Positions 330 to 7,505 of a stretch of 13,814 nt of DNA are shown piece after piece (position 1 is the stretch's first letter; each line of letters opens with the position of its first letter). Origin of the DNA: a virus (Duplodnaviria; Heunggongvirae; Uroviricota; Caudoviricetes); IMG/VR virus record IMGVR_UViG_2695420871_000010; one strand, 5' to 3'. The notes beneath the pieces are model-generated. The model saw nothing but the letters and a program-made list of their open reading frames with translations, was not told the DNA's origin and made no database searches. The translations under genes and the position numbers were made by a program.

Positions 330-549
330 GCTTCGACATCCTTCGCAAATCTTATACAAGTAAGATGGAATAAACCGGGGTCAGAGAGGGGGCTGTTCAA
401 AACCTCGCCAACTCTAGAAATACAATTTAGAGAATTAGGGCGAGCCGTCAAGCATTTGACAGGGGCCAGGGGGCAGGTATGAATCAAAAATTTGAAGCAG
501 TTAACGCTATTGACAGGAATGTGACAGATGTCGCTGATGCCAACGATAG

Positions 550-567
550 ATGATAGTTATTTATCAT
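550..567. repeat. Left copy of 18-bp att core repeat (attL), atgatagttatttatcat
   Basis: 17/18 identical to atgatagttatctatcat at 10655-10672; the repeat is internally palindromic (atgata...tatcat). Removing the sequence between the copies leaves a cspD-clpS spacer of ~320 bp. Confidence 0.65.
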
Positions 568-570
568 CTA

Positions 571-680
571 GTGTTCGCGGGTGTTCGTGGTAGTGTTTTG
601 TGTGCATTCATCGCTATGATTATAAAGGAAAATTTTGTTTTCCTTGTTCGCTCTTGTTCGTCACGGTTTGCCCTTGTACG
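571..680. promoter_or_regulatory. Helically phased (G)TGTTCG repeats, candidate integrase arm-type / accessory-protein sites (left end)
   Basis: gtgttcg at 571-577 and 581-587, ttgttcg at 644-650 and 654-660, degenerate copies at 593-599 and 673-680; pairs are spaced exactly 10 bp. The same motif recurs at the right end (10527-10556). Confidence 0.5.
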
Positions 681-686
681 ATGCAC

Positions 687-722
687 GGTGTAGTCAATGG
701 TGTAGTCAATGGTGTAGTTAAT
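687..722. repeat. Three tandem 12-bp repeats GGTGTAGT(C/T)AAT just upstream of int
   Basis: ggtgtagtcaat x2 and ggtgtagttaat x1, contiguous; two further copies lie at the right end (10560-10583). Candidate arm-type recombinase binding sites. Confidence 0.55.
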
Positions 723-745
723 TTTGATGACCGGAAACGCGAAAC

Positions 746-1984
746 ATGAGCAGCGCAATTCATAGACTTAGCGACACTCTTTTACGAAAATTAAGCGGAT
801 CACCAACCACAAAAAACGCCTTTTTTAATGACGGTGGCAATCTTAGCGTAAGACATTCCACCAGCGGCCTGTTAACCTGGTATTTCACTTACAGGGCCGG
901 AACTGGCAGGCAGGTATCACCGGAACGCCTGAGACTGGGCAACTATCCCGATCTGAGCCTGAAAGCAGCCAGGGAAAAAGCGGCACAGTGTCGCGCCTGG
1001 CTGGCTGAGGGGAAAAATCCGCGCTATGAGCTTAATCGTGCTGTACAGGATGCGTTAGCCCCCGTGACAGTTAAGGAAGCGCTCACTTACTGGCTTGAAT
1101 CGTATGCAAAGGAAAAGCGCACTGACTACGAATCACTGAAAAGCCGGATCAATAAACACATAATCAGCCAGATTGGCGCTTTGCCGTTGGAAAAATGCGA
1201 GCTACGGCACTGGTTGGCATGTTTTGACCAGATGGCAAAGCGAAGCCCAGTATCTGCCGGATTTTTGCTACAGGTATGCAAACAGGCGCTTAAGTACTGC
1301 CGAAAACGACGATACGCAATCAGCAACGTTCTTGATGATATGGTTGTCGGTGATGTGGGAAAAAAAGCAGAAATAAGCGAGCGCGTACTAACAAACAAGG
1401 AGCTTGGGGAATTACTCCGCGCCCTGGATGAAAAAATTTACCCACCGTACTACAGCGCCCTGATTCGCCTCCTGATTGTCTTCGGATGCCGTGCCACTGA
1501 GCTAAGACGCTCTGAGGTCCAGGAATGGGATTTTAAAGAAATGCTCTGGACCGTGCCGAAAGAACACAGCAAAACGAAGGTAGCAATATTCAGGCCAATA
1601 CCGGAAGCGATCTTGCCGTTCGTAACGAAGCTGGTGGAGCAGAACAGGCACACGGGATTATTGCTCGGAGAACTGAAAGGGCAATCATCCGTATCAGAGT
1701 ACGGAAGAACGGCACACAGACGCATTAATCAAGCCCCCTGGACGTTGCACGACATCCGGCACACGTTTACAACGATGCTGAACGATTTAGGCGTGGATCC
1801 TCATGTAGTGGAGCAGCTAACCGCGCACCAGTTGCCAGGAGTGCAACGAGTCTATAATCACTCCCGTTATCTCGATGCAAAACGTGACGCTCTTAATCTA
1901 TGGGTTGAGCGTCTCGAGCTTCTCCAGAACAATGATGAAAAAATCGTTGTTATGACCCCGCGAATTTACTCCCAAAATTCTTGA
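746..1984 (+). CDS. int: Tyrosine site-specific integrase, P4-like (412 aa)
   Basis: C-terminal catalytic region with ...LHDIRHTFTTMLNDLG... and ...VQRVYNHSRY... (R/H-x-x-R and catalytic Tyr context); N-terminal arm-binding-type domain typical of P4/CP4-57-family integrases; sits next to attL. Confidence 0.9.
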   Translation: MSSAIHRLSDTLLRKLSGSPTTKNAFFNDGGNLSVRHSTSGLLTWYFTYRAGTGRQVSPERLRLGNYPDLSLKAAREKAAQCRAWLAEGKNPRYELNRAVQDALAPVTVKEALTYWLESYAKEKRTDYESLKSRINKHIISQIGALPLEKCELRHWLACFDQMAKRSPVSAGFLLQVCKQALKYCRKRRYAISNVLDDMVVGDVGKKAEISERVLTNKELGELLRALDEKIYPPYYSALIRLLIVFGCRATELRRSEVQEWDFKEMLWTVPKEHSKTKVAIFRPIPEAILPFVTKLVEQNRHTGLLLGELKGQSSVSEYGRTAHRRINQAPWTLHDIRHTFTTMLNDLGVDPHVVEQLTAHQLPGVQRVYNHSRYLDAKRDALNLWVERLELLQNNDEKIVVMTPRIYSQNS

Positions 1985-2028
1985 CAAATTACGGCTGTTT
2001 TTCTTGCGAAAAATGGCCCTCTAAAATA

Positions 2029-2059
2029 AATCGTCGAATATCGGCAAATATCGACGATT
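2029..2059. promoter_or_regulatory. Perfect 9-bp inverted repeat aatcgtcga-N13-tcgacgatt between int and alpA
   Basis: Arms at 2029-2037 and 2051-2059 are exact reverse complements. Could be an operator in the alpA promoter region or a weak terminator for int (no strong T-run follows). Confidence 0.4.
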
Positions 2060-2393
2060 TATATGTGTCAACTATCGAAAAAAATTGAAATGTCTTCTTC
2101 TGAGTTCTTATTCTCTGTTTCTTGATTATTCCAATACCTGATGGTTTATCTATTTGTTTTTAATGAGGTAATTCAGGTGTCATGCCAAATGGCGACATTT
2201 TTTGTTGCGTCGCTTAAAAACTCGTGACACGATTTTAAACACTAACGAGCTTCTACGAACCTTAGCGAACAAAGCCTTTAGCATGGTTGTGTTTTTAATT
2301 TAAGAGGTGAAAAAGAATCTAAGTAATATCCGATCTCATATATCTACAGCTAAGAGAAAAGTTTATATACGTAATTTTTATGTAGGTTTTTGT

Positions 2394-2603
2394 ATGCGTG
2401 AAATAAATGAAGATCGCGTAATCCGTGAGGATGAATGTCGTAAGTTAACTGGAGTGTGCCGCACTACACGTTACGAACTGGAGAAAAAAGGGCGCTTTCC
2501 GTCACGTCTTAATCTGGGCGGTCGTTCTGTAGGGTGGCTGCTGTCCGAGGTTATGGAATGGGTTAAAAGCCGGGATCGCATTAATTCAGGTAAGGCAGTG
2601 TAA
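2394..2603 (+). CDS. alpA: AlpA-family phage transcriptional regulator (69 aa from internal Met)
   Basis: …RVIREDECRKLTGVCRTTRYELEKKGRFPSRLNLGGRSVGWLLSEVMEWVKSR matches the AlpA/MerR-like HTH pattern. The track start at 2307 is a GTG embedded in an RBS-like taagagg with no spacer, so the in-frame ATG at 2394 is preferred; start is uncertain. Confidence 0.7.
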   Translation: MREINEDRVIREDECRKLTGVCRTTRYELEKKGRFPSRLNLGGRSVGWLLSEVMEWVKSRDRINSGKAV

Positions 2604-2948
2604 AGGGGAGCATATGACACATAAAACAAAGGCGACCTGGGGCGGTCGCCAGTTTGGAAACACTAAACATAAGCATGTCAATGATAGCCGCTATCAGGCT
2701 GGTGGGCAATGCTATCAGTCTGTTTCAGTGCGTTGCCATAACTGCGAAGCTCTCTCCTTTGATGAGTATTCTTTAAGGTACTTCTCAAGGGCAAAAGAAC
2801 ACGGCGCGAATCGTTCTGATTCATGCTCTTTCTTTCTGCGTCGTCTTTTTCGTGCAGGTGATGTTTTTTTGGTTGATTCTTCGTTGGTCATTGTGTGCGC
2901 CTGTAAAGCAATGCGCCGGAGTTCCTCACACCACGGCGCTGATAGTGA

Positions 2949-3254
2949 TTATTCTGATTCTTTGGCCTTGCGGCGCTGGAGTTCTTCGCGTGCAACGGTG
3001 ATAAGCTGCCCGATTTCCTCCGCTGCCTTGATGCCGATTTGTTCGACATTAGCTAGGGCATCCAGTGAAGACACAAGGGGATTTTCTCCACTTCCTTCTG
3101 CCTGGCGCCTGGCGATCTCACCGCGTACAGCCGTAACTATAAAATTCGCTTTAGTTTCCCCTGGCTGTAGGGATGCCTCAATGCCACTCACTACTTCATG
3201 TGGAAATCTGGCATTCAGTTGCTGTGACTTATTGTTAACAGAACTCCTGGACAT
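2949..3254 (-). CDS. Small ribbon-helix-helix-like DNA-binding protein, candidate island repressor (101 aa)
   Basis: Internal ATG at 3254-3252 is preceded by a strong RBS (GGGAGGTG, 6-nt spacer); the longer track ORF has no RBS. N-terminus …QQLNARFPHEVVSGIEASLQ… has a beta-strand then helix pattern like Arc/CopG. Divergent from the replication operon, with operator repeats in between. Confidence 0.5.
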   Translation of the reverse strand: MSRSSVNNKSQQLNARFPHEVVSGIEASLQPGETKANFIVTAVRGEIARRQAEGSGENPLVSSLDALANVEQIGIKAAEEIGQLITVAREELQRRKAKESE

Positions 3255-3287
3255 GTTTGCACCTCCCATTAATAACGGGATGCAGTG

Positions 3288-3343
3288 TAATACAAAAGTG
3301 AATACCAAAAAAGACTTGAAATGGTATTCACCTAAATGTAATG
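3288..3343. promoter_or_regulatory. Operator-like cluster: three copies of GTGAATACCA (direct, inverted, direct) in the divergent promoter region
   Basis: gtgaatacca at 3289-3298, its reverse complement tggtattcac at 3313-3322, and gtgaatacca at 3334-3343; located between the minus-strand RHH gene (start 3254) and the plus-strand operon (start 3455). Confidence 0.55.
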
Positions 3344-3454
3344 TGAATACCACAAGTGCTGATACATGCAATTCAGCAATTGAAACGACGAAGCCCCGCA
3401 AGTGTCGTTACCACTCGCAGGGCTTCTAACCAACAACGTAAACGAGGAGCCGTT

Positions 3455-3652
3455 ATGGTTGCCGTAAATCATATACCACACCTTGTACACACACAAACGG
3501 CCTTTGTGTGGCGTTTTCTGGCCCTGAGTGCCGGAGAATCTCAAATCATCCACGTAACCGCCTGGACGGAACGCGAAGCGCGTAACCGTTGCCCGTCAGG
3601 TTGTGTTGCTGTATTCGCCGCCCGTATTCGTCAGGAGGTGTGCCATGCCTGA
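3455..3652 (+). CDS. Small protein (65 aa), possibly Icd-like host cell-division inhibitor
   Basis: ATG at 3455 with GAGGAG RBS 5 nt upstream. Sequence …TAFVWRFLALSAGESQIIHVTAWTEREARNRC…VFAARIRQ is reminiscent, from memory only, of Icd-like proteins of P4-like islands. Overlaps the next gene start. Confidence 0.4.
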   Translation: MVAVNHIPHLVHTQTAFVWRFLALSAGESQIIHVTAWTEREARNRCPSGCVAVFAARIRQEVCHA

Positions 3653-3965
3653 CATGACCAATTACCAGTACCTGATTAATCCGCATTTTAACTGTGAGCA
3701 TGATATTGCTAAAAAGGTTTATTCCGCTGCGGATGGGGCTACTGACAATATATCAATGGCTGTTGCGTCAATTGGTAGCCTGATGTGGCATGCGTCAGAA
3801 AATGAGGAATATGACGAAAAGGCTATGCGCATTGACATGGGTAATATTGGCTTGTTACTGGCAATGCTTGGGCAGTTTGATATTTCGTTACGGTGCACCA
3901 TTGAAAATGCCACAGATGCATTAAATGCCATAGAGAAAGCGAATACTGATTCAAATCTGAGATAA
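3645..3965 (+). CDS. Hypothetical protein (106 aa)
   Basis: ATG at 3645 with AGGAGG RBS about 7 nt upstream; 8-nt overlap with the preceding gene suggests translational coupling. No family recognised. Confidence 0.5.
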   Translation: MPDMTNYQYLINPHFNCEHDIAKKVYSAADGATDNISMAVASIGSLMWHASENEEYDEKAMRIDMGNIGLLLAMLGQFDISLRCTIENATDALNAIEKANTDSNLR

Positions 3966-3971
3966 ATAATC

Positions 3972-4271
3972 ATGAGAACGTATTTATCTGGCTTGACTGC
4001 CAGCGGTTATGCACACCCCAAAATTATCCCCGGCGCTATTTATCTGGATAAGAACGGTAACAGAGTAACGGTAAAAGAACTGATGTTTGACCGTGTGTAT
4101 TTTATTCGTGATGGCTATTCATTTCATAGTTCGCTGAACGTGGAGATCTTTATTAGCAGATTCAGGCGGGAAATCCCGCTTTCCAGAAATAACCATGTGT
4201 CATGTATGGATGTTGATAAAAAACTACAGGAACTGAAAAACATGATTGCCGCGTGGAGAGAGCAGAAATGA
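3972..4271 (+). CDS. Hypothetical protein (99 aa)
   Basis: ORF in the operon; weak RBS. Its TGA stop (4269-4271) overlaps the ATG of the replication gene (4268-4270) as ATGA. Confidence 0.4.
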   Translation: MRTYLSGLTASGYAHPKIIPGAIYLDKNGNRVTVKELMFDRVYFIRDGYSFHSSLNVEIFISRFRREIPLSRNNHVSCMDVDKKLQELKNMIAAWREQK

Positions 4272-6058
4272 AAAAAGCGCCAAATTTAAAACACCAGCCG
4301 CGTGACAAAATGACGGAAGTCATCATTTTTGCGGGTAATGATGCGTGGGCACATGCGAAGCAGTGGCAGGAACAGGACGGGCGACTGGCTGGCGACAGCG
4401 TGCCTCCTGTCTGGCTTGGAGAACAACAACTTGCCGAACTGGATAAGCTGCAAATCGTACCGGACGGACGCTATCGGGTGCGTCTCTACCAGGCGGGGTT
4501 ATTGCGTCCGGGGCTTGTTAATACCATCGGGCAGAAACTGGCAGCGGCAGGTGTCAGGGATGCTGATTATTACCCTGAAGGAATGCACAGCCAGAAACGG
4601 GAGAACTGGCGCGAATATCTGGAACGTGAACGGGCAGAGCAGGCGGAAAAGAAAAAGGTAGTTGAACTGCCTGTAAAGAAAAAAGAGCGGGTAAAAGACG
4701 ATAACGCTTCATCACTGGCGCTTAACCAGATGGGAGCAAGTCAACGCGGCGAAGTTCTCCTGGCACATTATGGCGGTGAACTGGCGATTCATGCTGACTC
4801 TGACACTGTTCACCATTACAACGGCGTTGTATGGGAGCCAGTACAGGATAAAGAATTACAGCGAGCTATGGCACAGATTTTCATTGATGCGGAGATCAGC
4901 TATTCGCAGAACGCCATTAAATCGGCGGTCGATACCATGAAGTTAAGTTTGCCTGTAATGGGGAATACAGCCCGTAACCTGATTGGATTCAGTAACGGGG
5001 TATTTGATACCAGAACAGGTAATTTTCGGGAGCATAACAAAAACGACTGGTTGTTAATTGCCAGTGAATTACCTTTCAGCCCACCAGCAGAGGGGGAAAC
5101 GCTGGCAACACATGCGCCGAATTTCTGGAAGTGGTTACGCCGTTCGGTGGCTGAGAATGACCGCAAGGCGGATCGCGTACTGGCTGTATTATTCATGGTG
5201 CTGGCGAACCGGTACGACTGGCAGTTATTCATTGAGGTAACAGGTCCAGGGGGAAGTGGTAAAAGCGTGATGGCGGAGATTTGCACCATGCTGGCGGGTA
5301 AGGCCAACACAGTATCGGCAAGCATGAAGGCGCTGGAAGATGCAAGGGAACGCGCGTTAGTGGTTGGCTTTTCGCTGATTATCATGCCGGATATGACCCG
5401 CTACGCTGGTGATGGGGCAGGGATTAAGGCCATTACAGGCGGTGACAAGGTGGCAATTGACCCGAAACACAAAGCCCCCTACTCAACGCGTATTCCGGCA
5501 GTAGTGCTGGCGGTTAACAATAACGCCATGTCATTCAGTGACCGCAGCGGGGGGATCTCACGTCGTCGGGTGATATTCAATTTTTCGGAAGTTGTACCGG
5601 AGAACGAACGCGACCCCATGCTGGCAGAAAAAATAGAAGGAGAGCTGGCGGTTGTGATTCGCCACCTGCTTACTCGTTTTTCTGACCAGGACGAAGCTAA
5701 ACGCCTGCTGTATGAGCAGCAGAAATCAGAAGAAGCTCTGGTGATAAAACGCGAGGGCGATTCGCTGGTGGACTTCTGCGGCTATCTCATGTCGTCGGTA
5801 ATGTGTGATGGTCTGTTAGTGGGTAATGCCGAAATTATTCCGTTCAGTCCGCGCAGGTATCTTTATCACGCCTATCTGGCATATATGAGGGCACACGGAT
5901 TCGGTAAACCTGTAACACTGACGCGCTTCGGTAAAGATATGCCGGGGGCAATGGCGGAATATGGCAGGGAGTATATGAAACGGAAAACGAAGCACGGTTT
6001 GCGTTCAAATGTGACCCTGACAGAGGATTCAGAAGACTGGATGCCATCATGTGCATAG
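4268..6058 (+). CDS. Replication initiation protein, P4-alpha-like: D5_N-type domain plus SF3 helicase/NTPase (596 aa)
   Basis: Walker A GPGGSGKS followed by …VVGFSLIIMPDMTRYAGDGAGIKAITGGDKVAIDPKHKAPY… (P4-family primase/helicase C-terminal region). Start set at ATG 4268 (GGAGAG RBS, 6-nt spacer), not the track start 4253. Iterons lie immediately downstream. Confidence 0.85.
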   Translation: MKKAPNLKHQPRDKMTEVIIFAGNDAWAHAKQWQEQDGRLAGDSVPPVWLGEQQLAELDKLQIVPDGRYRVRLYQAGLLRPGLVNTIGQKLAAAGVRDADYYPEGMHSQKRENWREYLERERAEQAEKKKVVELPVKKKERVKDDNASSLALNQMGASQRGEVLLAHYGGELAIHADSDTVHHYNGVVWEPVQDKELQRAMAQIFIDAEISYSQNAIKSAVDTMKLSLPVMGNTARNLIGFSNGVFDTRTGNFREHNKNDWLLIASELPFSPPAEGETLATHAPNFWKWLRRSVAENDRKADRVLAVLFMVLANRYDWQLFIEVTGPGGSGKSVMAEICTMLAGKANTVSASMKALEDARERALVVGFSLIIMPDMTRYAGDGAGIKAITGGDKVAIDPKHKAPYSTRIPAVVLAVNNNAMSFSDRSGGISRRRVIFNFSEVVPENERDPMLAEKIEGELAVVIRHLLTRFSDQDEAKRLLYEQQKSEEALVIKREGDSLVDFCGYLMSSVMCDGLLVGNAEIIPFSPRRYLYHAYLAYMRAHGFGKPVTLTRFGKDMPGAMAEYGREYMKRKTKHGLRSNVTLTEDSEDWMPSCA

Positions 6059-6099
6059 GTCACAAATGACGATGGAAAAAATTAAACTTATGGAATAAC

Positions 6100-6327
6100 T
6101 GTTCACCACTGTTCACCCTGCAATAAATGTCTTTTATATCAGTATATTATAGGGTGAACAGTTATTTATGAACTGTTCACCAAACTATTCACTGTTCACC
6201 TTTTTGATTCTTTATTGAGCTTTAAGGGTGAACAGTGGTGAACAGTTGGTGAATAGTTTTTGTGAAACTGTTAACCCATTAACATCATGAATAAAAAGGG
6301 AAAATTGCAAAAGGTGAACAGGTGAAG
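6100..6327. repeat. Iteron cluster (TGTTCACC / GGTGAACA in both orientations), candidate replication origin (P4 ori/crr-like)
   Basis: TGTTCACC at 6100-6107, 6110-6117, 6174-6181, 6193-6200; GGTGAACA at 6153-6160, 6228-6235, 6238-6245, 6313-6320; degenerate copies (tattcac, ggtgaata, tgttaacc, ggtgaag) interspersed; AT-rich spacers. Confidence 0.65.
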
Positions 6328-6372
6328 GGTTAAAATGCAAAAATTTTATTTTATTGCTGTGAGGTAAAGCCT

Positions 6373-6618
6373 GTGACAACGAAGCACGCCAAAAAACCAC
6401 AATCTCACGCCCTTGATTTGACAGAACACTGGCTGAGGGTGGCGATAAAAATCATCGACCGCAACGCCGGGGAAGGATACGCGAAAGCACATCCCGAACT
6501 GATAAGCGCATTCATGACCACGACGGCGGCAAACTTTGCCACGCTGACAGAACGGGAGATTGCCGAAGCGGAACAGGTGACAACCATCAACGTTAAAACC
6601 GGAGAGCAGACAGCATGA
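6373..6618 (+). CDS. Hypothetical protein (81 aa), GTG start
   Basis: GTG at 6373 with GAGGT RBS 7 nt upstream; TGA stop overlaps the ATG of the next gene (ATGA at 6615-6618). No family recognised. Confidence 0.45.
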   Translation: MTTKHAKKPQSHALDLTEHWLRVAIKIIDRNAGEGYAKAHPELISAFMTTTAANFATLTEREIAEAEQVTTINVKTGEQTA

Positions 6619-7037
6619 CAGCACAGATAGCGGCTTACGGGCGGCTGGTGGCTGACCCGCAGTTAAAGACCACCAGCAAGGGTACGCAAATGACGATGGC
6701 GAGTATGGCGGTTCCCCTGCCGTGCAGCCAGGCAGATGACGGAACGGCGACGATATGGTTATCCGTCCTGGCGTTTGGCAGACAGGCTGACGCACTGGCA
6801 AAGCACCAGAAAGGCGAGCTGGTGAGCGTGGCGGGTAACATGCAGGTAAGCCAGTGGACAGGCCAGAACGGAGAAACGCGGCAGGGCTGGCAGGTTATCG
6901 CAGACAGTGTAATCAGTGCCAGAACGGCGCGACCGGGCGGTAAAAAAGGCCAACAGGGGCAGGCCACTGATGCACTGAACAGGGCCAAACAACAGGCGGG
7001 GAATGATGATCCGTACGGGGATAACATACCGTTTTAA
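6615..7037 (+). CDS. Single-stranded DNA-binding (SSB)-like OB-fold protein with SSB C-terminal tail (140 aa)
   Basis: OB-fold-like core (…GRLVADPQLKTTSKGTQMTMASMAV…WLSVLAFGRQADALAKHQKGELVSVAGNMQVSQWTGQNGETRQGWQVIAD…), a Gly/Gln-rich linker, and an acidic C-terminus …DDPYGDNIPF resembling the E. coli SSB tail (…DDDIPF). Confidence 0.7.
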   Translation: MTAQIAAYGRLVADPQLKTTSKGTQMTMASMAVPLPCSQADDGTATIWLSVLAFGRQADALAKHQKGELVSVAGNMQVSQWTGQNGETRQGWQVIADSVISARTARPGGKKGQQGQATDALNRAKQQAGNDDPYGDNIPF

Positions 7038-7052
7038 GCAACGAGTGACAGA

Positions 7053-7077
7053 AGCCGGAGCAATCCGGCTTTTTTGT
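7053..7077 (+). terminator. Intrinsic terminator after the SSB-like gene
   Basis: Stem agccgga (7054-7060) / tccggct (7065-7071), loop gcaa, then tttttt. Confidence 0.7.
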
Positions 7078-7083
7078 AGGTAC

Positions 7084-7170
7084 TCCTGGTGGGGGTGGCC
7101 TGTCCACGGGGCGGGCGGTTCGCGGAAAAAGGCGTATTTTTTGATTTTTATGTCACCATCACCACCAGTT
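7084..7170 (+). promoter_or_regulatory. Conserved element copy A (cos-like; candidate packaging site or late promoter)
   Basis: ctcctggtgggggtggcctgtccacggggcgggcggttcgcggaaaaaggcgtatttttt… is near-identical over ~60 bp to 9613-9695. Contains ACG-GGGCGGGCGGTT-CGCGG followed by an AT-rich GCGTATTTTTTGA segment, resembling the lambda cos junction (…ACG|GGGCGGCGACCT|CGCGGGTTTTCGCTATTTATGA…, recalled from memory). Confidence 0.45.
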
Positions 7171-7505
7171 TAAGTTATTGATATATGGCAAAATAAAAAT
7201 TTTTAGTGTCGAATTAGGTTGTTTTTTGTTCGAAGCCGGAACGTTCCCGAAAGCATTTACAAAAAACAGGCGCAAAAAAAAGCGCCCCGATGGTGCCACC
7301 GGAGGCGCTTTGTCAGCGACAAAGGATACTGCCACTACCGAAATGATGAGTCTTAATTGTGCTGGCGTGGCAATAATTAGTCAATTCTTTTGCTGGTATG
7401 ACAAAAATCAGAAAACACATAATCTGATTTTTAGATAGAAAATGATTTATTTACCAGTTTTATCGATCAATAATGATGCCCGTTAATCATAACGGAGGCA
7501 GACTT

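Follow-up and report, generated by a model that had tools for sequence, protein, structure and literature searches.

A bacterial-type single-stranded DNA-binding protein encoded beside the replication origin of a phage-inducible chromosomal island

The ssb gene of a cspD-clpS island

The window analyzed here is a 13,814-nucleotide (nt) stretch of DNA from the IMG/VR virus record IMGVR_UViG_2695420871_000010 (Caudoviricetes), and it runs from cspD through an island to clpS, clpA, and a series of type I-F CRISPR repeats. The island is a Gram-negative phage-inducible chromosomal island (PICI) of the published EcCI family that occupies ~10.1 kb between cspD and clpS. Its genes between the att cores all lie on the plus strand, and its elements follow the order int, alpA, replicase, iteron origin, orf81, ssb, terminator, cos-like site, and capsid module. 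Our subject is ssb, an open reading frame (ORF) at positions 6615 to 7037 (+) that encodes a 140-amino-acid (aa) protein. A first-pass annotation, made by a model from the letters of the window, had described this ORF as an island-encoded protein resembling single-stranded DNA (ssDNA)-binding proteins (SSBs). The ORF was as described there, with a product of 140 aa ending in DDPYGDNIPF (C terminus, ...GNDDPYGDNIPF).

The ssb ATG at 6615 overlaps the TGA (6616 to 6618) of an 81-aa ORF, orf81 (6373 to 6618), and we could thus confirm the ATGA junction that had been reported between the two genes. The ssb ATG is preceded at a distance of 9 nt by a ribosome-binding site of the GGAG type, and Shine-Dalgarno-like sequences precede both orf81 and ssb. 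Three antisense ORFs cover ssb bases (6635 to 7027, 6346 to 6801, and 6759 to 6992); none of them matched a family, and we attribute their presence to the GC content of the gene (60 to 61%). An Rfam scan returned nothing in or beside ssb.

Profile searches and structure prediction agreed on the nature of the product. The Pfam SSB family (PF00436) matched it with an E value of 3.9e-16 and 59.4 bits (cutoff, 26), and NCBIfam TIGR00621 scored 60.5 bits against a curated cutoff of 53.95. PHROG 44, named "single strand DNA binding protein," matched with an E value of 1.2e-38, as did 27 solved SSBs at an E value of <0.01. An AlphaFold2 model built from a 39-sequence alignment placed an OB barrel over residues 1 to 101 (block-mean pLDDT, 82 to 93), with strands at residues 2 to 11, 16 to 19, 25 to 36, 44 to 54, 69 to 82, and 88 to 101 and a helix at residues 55 to 62, followed by a low-confidence tail at residues 104 to 140. 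When this model was compared with the PDB using Foldseek, the best 50 matches listed were all bacterial SSBs (probability of 1.0), with TM-scores of 0.62 to 0.79 after normalization by target length. On the basis of these profile, solved-structure, and model matches, we divided the gene into an OB-fold domain (residues 1 to 101; 6615 to 6917, +), a disordered linker rich in Lys, Gln, and Gly (residues 102 to 130; 6918 to 7004, +) that has a block-mean pLDDT of 43 to 48 and a length that varies among homologues, and the C-terminal tip DDPYGDNIPF with its stop codon (7005 to 7037, +), which is conserved among relatives. The OB-fold-like core postulated in the first-pass annotation is therefore borne out, and these data show that the island gene encodes a bacterial-type SSB in which the family fold leads through a short, disordered linker to a tip of the SSB type that is conserved among relatives.

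The chromosomal SSB of Escherichia coli (PF00436; PDB entries 1EYG, 1QVC, and 1EQQ) shares with the island protein the OB fold, the disordered linker, and a tip ending in I-P-F. Three of the four ssDNA-stacking aromatics of E. coli SSB (W54, F60, and W88) align with aromatics of the island SSB (W48, F54, and W81), while the fourth, W40, aligns with Gln39, and H55 at the tetramer interface aligns with Leu49. The core of the island SSB is only 25% identical to that of the host, and since identity is this low, the island protein probably forms its own oligomers and not mixed ones with host SSB. The two proteins also differ outside the core. The host linker is ~55 aa long and rich in Gly, Gln, and Pro, with PxxP motifs, whereas the island linker is ~29 aa long and net basic, and the island tip reads GDNIPF where the host tip reads DDDIPF. 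The island tip resembles the host sequence F-D-D-D-I-P-F in the final Phe (position 0), the Pro at -1, the Ile at -2, the Asp at -4, and an aromatic residue at -6, five positions in all.

The same three-part architecture, with a conserved core, a variable linker, and a conserved tip, was found across the 120 best database cluster representatives, four further genera of Enterobacterales, and one metagenome-assembled genome (MAG) of Fulvimarina. The nearest cluster, which bears the name SSB, shares 97% identity, and the 120 representatives are 71 to 97% identical over the full-length protein. Conservation of the core is high (e.g., N-terminal MTAQI..YGRL, WLSV.AFG, and QVIADSVISAR), while the linker carries a 13-aa deletion in some homologues and a 9-aa Pro-rich insertion in others. 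The tip is kept as [Y/F/W]-G-D-x-I-P-F, and 115 of the 120 representatives end in D-x-[IVLA]-[PS]-F, the remaining five being truncated or extended. D136 was invariant, and I138 and P139 were conserved at 90% and 95%, respectively, in an alignment selected to end in F, in which conservation of F140 is uninformative. The SSB-type D-x-IPF tip of the first-pass annotation is thus upheld both by this conservation and by the low pLDDT of the tail. Two studies describe the SSB C-terminal tip as the docking site for SSB-interacting proteins (PMC10164576 and PMC7293020).

Outside Escherichia, members of the clade were present in Leclercia, Buttiauxella, Pantoea, Rahnella, and the Fulvimarina MAG (43% identity), where the tips read DDQIPF, DDLPPF, DDEAPF, FDDDF, FDD, and NDEVPF. 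The Pantoea and Rahnella SSBs (locus L016, 7001 to 7444, and locus L017, 7001 to 7450) end in ...RPPFDDDF or ...RPPFDD and not in I-P-F, which reflects either a diverged tip specificity or altered gene ends.

The gene is common in E. coli. At matching places, the PGAP annotation "single-stranded DNA-binding protein" was present in 1,525 to 1,753 of 5,426 complete E. coli genomes (roughly 28 to 32%), with up to six ssb copies per genome, and 1,809 of the 1,812 genomic places of the clade were chromosomal. No close relative was found among 50,697 phage records; the best match was 31% identical, and nearly all phage matches came from phages of Gram-positive hosts. We therefore rejected a recent acquisition from a sequenced coliphage. 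The chromosomal locations, together with the 25% identity to E. coli SSB, likewise led us to reject an origin from conjugative-plasmid SSBs. Those proteins (e.g., the F ssb product, encoded in the leading region) are close paralogues of host SSB that are expressed early in the recipient, and plasmid-borne SSBs are dispensable for basic replication. What the two groups share is an extra host-tipped SSB on a mobile element, but the island clade is borne on chromosomal islands and is distant from host SSB.

Position of ssb in the replication module

The prototype island EcCICFT073 carries a close counterpart of the window gene. Its c1497 (WP_000126698.1) is listed as "ssb" with a length of 136 aa (PMC6092414 supplement), is 72% identical to the window SSB over the full length, and has the tip DDPYGDDIPF. 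The two islands also share an orf81 homologue (85 aa and 88% identical in EcCICFT073) that overlaps the ssb start and occupies the same slot after Pri-Rep and the origin. They differ in the length of the SSB (136 versus 140 aa) and its linker segment (RRKTTGTQGNQPPAG in c1497), in the presence of perC after ssb in EcCICFT073, in the integration site (roxA-phoQ for EcCICFT073), and in the capsid module, which in EcCICFT073 is a separate capsid and decoration module with no protease-capsid fusion. Judged by sequence, the window SSB is orthologous to the annotated PICI ssb c1497. The first-pass annotation had implied novelty, and this part of it did not hold, as the gene is already called ssb in EcCICFT073 (PMC6092414), in the PICI literature (PMC10111431), and by PGAP. 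Its identity and its presence in PICIs are already known, and in this known satellite family it is annotated routinely as one of the components. Our results confirm an annotation in which E. coli PICIs encode an SSB of their own beside the origin.

The gene preceding the origin encodes a 601-aa replicase (Pri-Rep; 4253 to 6058, +) with the Pfam domains D5_N, DUF5906 (SF3-type helicase), and Pox_D5. Replicase residues 502 to 598 matched PDB entry 1KA8, "putative P4-specific DNA primase," with an E value of 2e-24; we take this chain to be the origin-binding domain of P4 alpha. The replicase is 48% identical to the Pri-Rep of EcCICFT073, whose origin-dependent replication has been demonstrated experimentally (Fillol-Salom et al. 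2018). A domain search found no primase domain in residues 1 to 165, which is weak evidence compatible with a dependence on host priming.

Residues 1 to 141 of the replicase (4253 to 4680) recur, at 47 to 68% identity, in islands with D5/DUF5906, RepA-helicase, and DUF927 replicases (locus L003, 6149 to 6571; locus L004, 5623 to 6039; and locus L007, 4626 to 5042). This segment matched no Pfam family, and its sole match was PHROG 2850 (function unknown). This conserved N-terminal module is possibly a regulatory, priming, or partner-binding domain.

Between the replicase and orf81 lies a replication origin (6084 to 6330) in which iterons of the sequence GGTGAACAG occur in both orientations around AT-rich DNA. 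Eight exact copies and two copies with one mismatch fall within 6099 to 6321, and the whole window holds 17 matches where 3.1 are expected. The GC content of the origin segment is 33 to 37%. This layout agrees with published PICI origins, as the hallmarks of PICIs include an origin that immediately follows the 3' end of the replicase gene and has two iteron sets flanking AT-rich DNA (Fillol-Salom et al. 2018). A sub-threshold Rfam microRNA match over the iterons was dismissed. In the PICI literature, SSB is counted among the replication genes and colocalizes with mapped origins (PMC10111431).

We compared the gene order of six E. coli islands at four att sites, and ssb stood behind the replicase and the origin gap in every one. 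Replicases of the D5/DUF5906 type occur in the window, GB089, ATCC 25922, and CFT073; in CFT073, the order is primase-family protein, gap, 85-aa hypothetical protein, SSB, PerC, and capsid genes. In O157:H7 EC4115, a RepA-family helicase stands before ssb, and in XJ6.1, a DUF927 replicase does so. In the other genera, ssb follows Zn-ribbon/Toprim/D5 or Toprim/DUF927 primase-helicases. Since ssb is retained with unrelated replicase types, it is part of the replication module independently of the type of replicase. The modules 3' of ssb vary and consist of capsid, decoration, and small-terminase genes, a protease-capsid fusion, or ProQ/FinO and PerC genes.

In some islands, a gene for a ProQ/FinO-family RNA-binding protein stands directly after ssb (locus L004, 8462 to 9279; locus L011, 7453 to 7938), joined in XJ6.1 by PerC. 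Such neighbors suggest RNA-level regulation encoded by the satellite.

The coupled upstream gene, orf81 (6373 to 6618, +), encodes a small helical protein of unknown function that belongs to PHROG 1231. Its predicted structure is a helical hairpin (pLDDT, 71) that yielded no informative match in a structure search, and the protein matched no Pfam, NCBIfam, or PADLOC family. The family, for which Pfam has no entry, comprises 661 clusters at 50% identity with the motif GxGYAKxHPELIAAFM in a profile search, and 38 of 38 sampled members fall in PHROG 1231. In tblastn searches of the phage collection, neither orf81 nor a distant member (P0253) found a match; the family consensus matched Pseudomonas phage KT1 alone, where the homologue follows a primase-helicase and has no SSB after it. 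Family members occur in diverse prophages and satellites (loci L022 to L102), sometimes directly after a primase-helicase (KT1 and L095).

The ssb start lies 4 nt before the orf81 stop in 68 of the 70 E. coli-type IMG/VR loci with room downstream, many of which are redundant. Nine divergent members of the orf81 family had no SSB within ~4 kb, islands of the DUF927 type have ssb without orf81, and the Buttiauxella and Rahnella islands have ssb coupled to an unrelated ORF of 132 to 142 aa. We therefore rejected orf81 as a general SSB partner; the coupling of orf81 and ssb is real but lineage specific.

Proposed role of the island SSB and alternatives

We propose, with a probability of roughly 0.6, that the island SSB assists replication as an accessory factor, coating the ssDNA of the island and using its tip to recruit host proteins. 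In this model, a helper phage would induce the island, and ssb would be transcribed together with the replicase. The SSB would then coat the ssDNA that the SF3-type replicase helicase opens at the origin and on the lagging strand, and its [Y/F]-G-D-x-I-P-F tip would recruit partners of the host SSB tip, such as the chi subunit of Pol III, DnaG, PriA, nucleases, or helicases. The island would gain its own pool of SSB while island and helper replicate together, and the protein would be accessory and not essential. The first-pass annotation had offered support of the island's own replication as one of several roles, next to competition with host SSB and action as a trigger or inhibitor; the computed evidence speaks neither for nor against the latter two. 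The context favors the replication role, as ssb closes the replication operon in every island examined (the terminator after ssb was checked in the window island, and the others were compared for gene order alone); the function itself we infer. The retention of ssb across D5/DUF5906, RepA-helicase, and DUF927 replicases argues for a replicase-independent, host-facing role, and together with the lack of a detected primase domain in replicase residues 1 to 165, it fits an accessory role.

Several observations weigh against an accessory replication factor. The island tip has fewer acidic residues than the host DFDDDIPF, and W40 and H55 of E. coli SSB are not conserved, so that the binding mode and the oligomeric state could differ. 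Given the tips of the Pantoea and Rahnella proteins (FDDDF or FDD), the recruitment of partners may not extend to all members of the clade. The searchable literature holds no experimental data on any PICI SSB. An EcCICFT073 construct named pri-ori maintains a temperature-sensitive plasmid in strain DH5alpha (Fillol-Salom et al. 2018); by its name alone, this construct lacks ssb, which suggests that host SSB suffices for basic replication. Finally, a function aimed at the helper phage would fit the position in the operon as well.

One alternative is that the island SSB serves mainly to compete for the partners of the host SSB tip or to occupy helper ssDNA, which would tilt host resources for replication and repair towards the island and lower helper yield. 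The mimicry of the host tip at five positions on a core so distant from host SSB would fit such interference, as would the apparent replication of pri-ori without the island ssb, and interference with the helper is a known property of PICIs. However, the interference determinants described for EcCICFT073 map elsewhere and act by packaging redirection (PMC6739421). The gene also sits in the replication module and not among interference or packaging genes, and no defense or interference family was matched. We regard interference as unlikely.

A role in recombination or end protection seems somewhat less probable still. Here the SSB would aid the formation of recombination-dependent or rolling-circle concatemers for cos packaging, possibly with the recombinase of the helper, or would shield ssDNA from host nucleases. 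By similarity, the island is cos packaged (it has two cos-like sites), and cos packaging needs concatemers; SSB tips are generally known to bind ExoI, RecQ, and RecJ-type enzymes, and the SbcB interaction is cited in the literature. Against this, Pfam, NCBIfam, and PHROG scans found no recombinase gene in the island, and the proposal overlaps the accessory replication role rather than replacing it.

We give a similarly low probability to the idea that the protein is more than a spare replication factor, namely a satellite-specific tip mimic that either captures host SSB partners after induction or is sensed by, or shields from, SSB-sensing immunity. Were this so, an inducible foreign SSB able to alter helper yield or the activation of defenses would be present in about a third of E. 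coli strains, and orf81, given its coupling to ssb within the enterobacterial lineage, might serve this SSB as a specific partner or as a chaperone. The gene is of interest in this light, being common in E. coli at a time when foreign SSBs have emerged as common triggers of antiphage systems.

A further alternative holds that the island SSB is a trigger, decoy, or shield for SSB-sensing defenses (Retron-Eco8, AbpAB, DARNA, Hna, and DRT10), with protection of island ssDNA or abortive infection after induction by the helper as the outcome. Several papers have recently shown such systems to be activated by phage SSBs, including some whose tips are host-like, and a clade whose best match among the phage records is 31% identical is a distinct foreign SSB. 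The defense-triggering proteins (Bas52_0087 for DRT10 and those sensed by Retron-Eco8 and AbpAB) share with the island protein their foreign origin and an FDDDIPF-like tip; they differ in that Bas52_0087 has two OB folds and the carriers are lytic phages. On the other hand, no PADLOC defense family was matched by island proteins at a meaningful score, no such system lies adjacent, and a link between a PICI SSB and a defense system was found neither in the literature nor in the PADLOC scan of the island. No immune role is needed to account for the conserved place of ssb in the replication operon, and the gene is tolerated in about a third of E. coli genomes. We consider an immune role very unlikely. 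One PADLOC match to a fragment of GajB (17 bits) was dismissed because it came from an overlapping ORF in an alternative frame.

That ssb is a decaying or nonfunctional passenger can be set aside almost entirely: truncated variants do occur among the database clusters and the IMG/VR loci, but the 120 best representatives are 71 to 97% identical over their full length, the core motifs persist in four more Enterobacterales genera and the Fulvimarina MAG, conservation extends to the tip but not to the variable linker, and 68 of 70 loci keep the coupling of the ssb start to the ORF before it.

Boundaries and other features of the island

The island is bounded by two exact copies of the 11-mer ATGATAGTTAT, attL (550 to 560, +) and attR (10655 to 10665, +), with 10,105 bp between the att cores. 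This 11-mer occurs twice in the window (0.01 occurrences expected), and its copies sit within a longer imperfect repeat (546 to 574 and 10651 to 10679). It is identical to the published att core of the cspD-clpS PICIs EcCIIHE3034 and EcCI18098 (PMC6092414 supplement). Inside attL are genes for a tyrosine integrase (746 to 1984, +; Pfam Phage_integrase and Arm-DNA-bind_3) and an AlpA-family regulator (2307 to 2603, +), in which residues 36 to 86 matched Pfam Phage_AlpA with an E value of 2.1e-16 and the true start is possibly further downstream. The small ORFs after alpA include one for a DUF4222 protein. In sum, the ~10-kb island has int, alpA, a pri-rep replicase, rightward transcription, and a phage-type cos-like site and morphogenesis gene without a full set of virion genes. 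The location of ssb in a satellite island, as assumed in the first-pass annotation, is thus corroborated by the integrase, alpA, the replicase, the iterons, the att repeats, and the capsid gene.

The replication operon ends in a terminator-like hairpin followed by a T-run (7050 to 7076, +; folding energy, -19 kcal/mol; z = -3.6). A consensus terminator scan did not list this hairpin, which we checked by folding, and a compensated copy of it lies after the capsid gene. It is followed by the first copy of a cos-like site (7076 to 7180, +), which forms part of a 129-nt repeat (7052 to 7180 and 9582 to 9710). The second copy of the repeat (9582 to 9710, +) again holds both the terminator hairpin and the cos-like site. 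The cos-like element matches intergenic DNA of lambdoid phages, located upstream of small-terminase or packaging genes and downstream of lysis genes, and resembles the core ACGGGGCGGCGACCTCGCGG of EcCICFT073 cos.1 and cos.2. EcCICFT073 likewise has two cos sites, cos.1 and cos.2 (PMC6092414 supplement). The 129-nt direct repeat, whose cos-like part reads ACGGGGCGGGCGGTTCGCGG..., brackets the protease-capsid module, and the stem changes between the two hairpin copies are compensatory. The 2.5-kb segment that separates the copies may be a cassette that was swapped in.

The capsid module contains the sole morphogenesis gene of the island, which encodes a 626-aa fusion of a ClpP-like prohead protease and an HK97-type major capsid protein (7697 to 9577, +; NCBIfam NF045540, 862 bits; Pfam CLP_protease and Phage_capsid_4). 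Pfam and NCBIfam scans found no portal, terminase, or tail genes among the island ORFs. In GB089, the same left-hand module is paired with a different module of capsid, decoration-protein, and small-terminase genes, from which we conclude that these islands exchange their right half as a cassette.

The island (540 to 10680) has no counterpart with more than ~93% identity over most of its length in the set of 5,426 complete E. coli genomes, and the best matches were 92.7% identical over 93% and 92.4% identical over 92% of it. The lineage or variant of the window island is therefore unrepresented in this set.

Short tandem repeats, GGTGTAGT[C/T]AAT and TTGTTCGTGG-like, lie just inside the island ends (687 to 722 and 10527 to 10583) and are candidate arm-binding sites for the integrase. 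Downstream of clpA, type I-F CRISPR repeats with the sequence GTTCACTGCCGTACAGGCAGCTTAGAAA occur from 13599 to 13746 at a spacing of 60 nt, in an array that runs towards the end of the window; the Rfam family CRISPR-DR4 matched the first two repeat copies with 50 bits.

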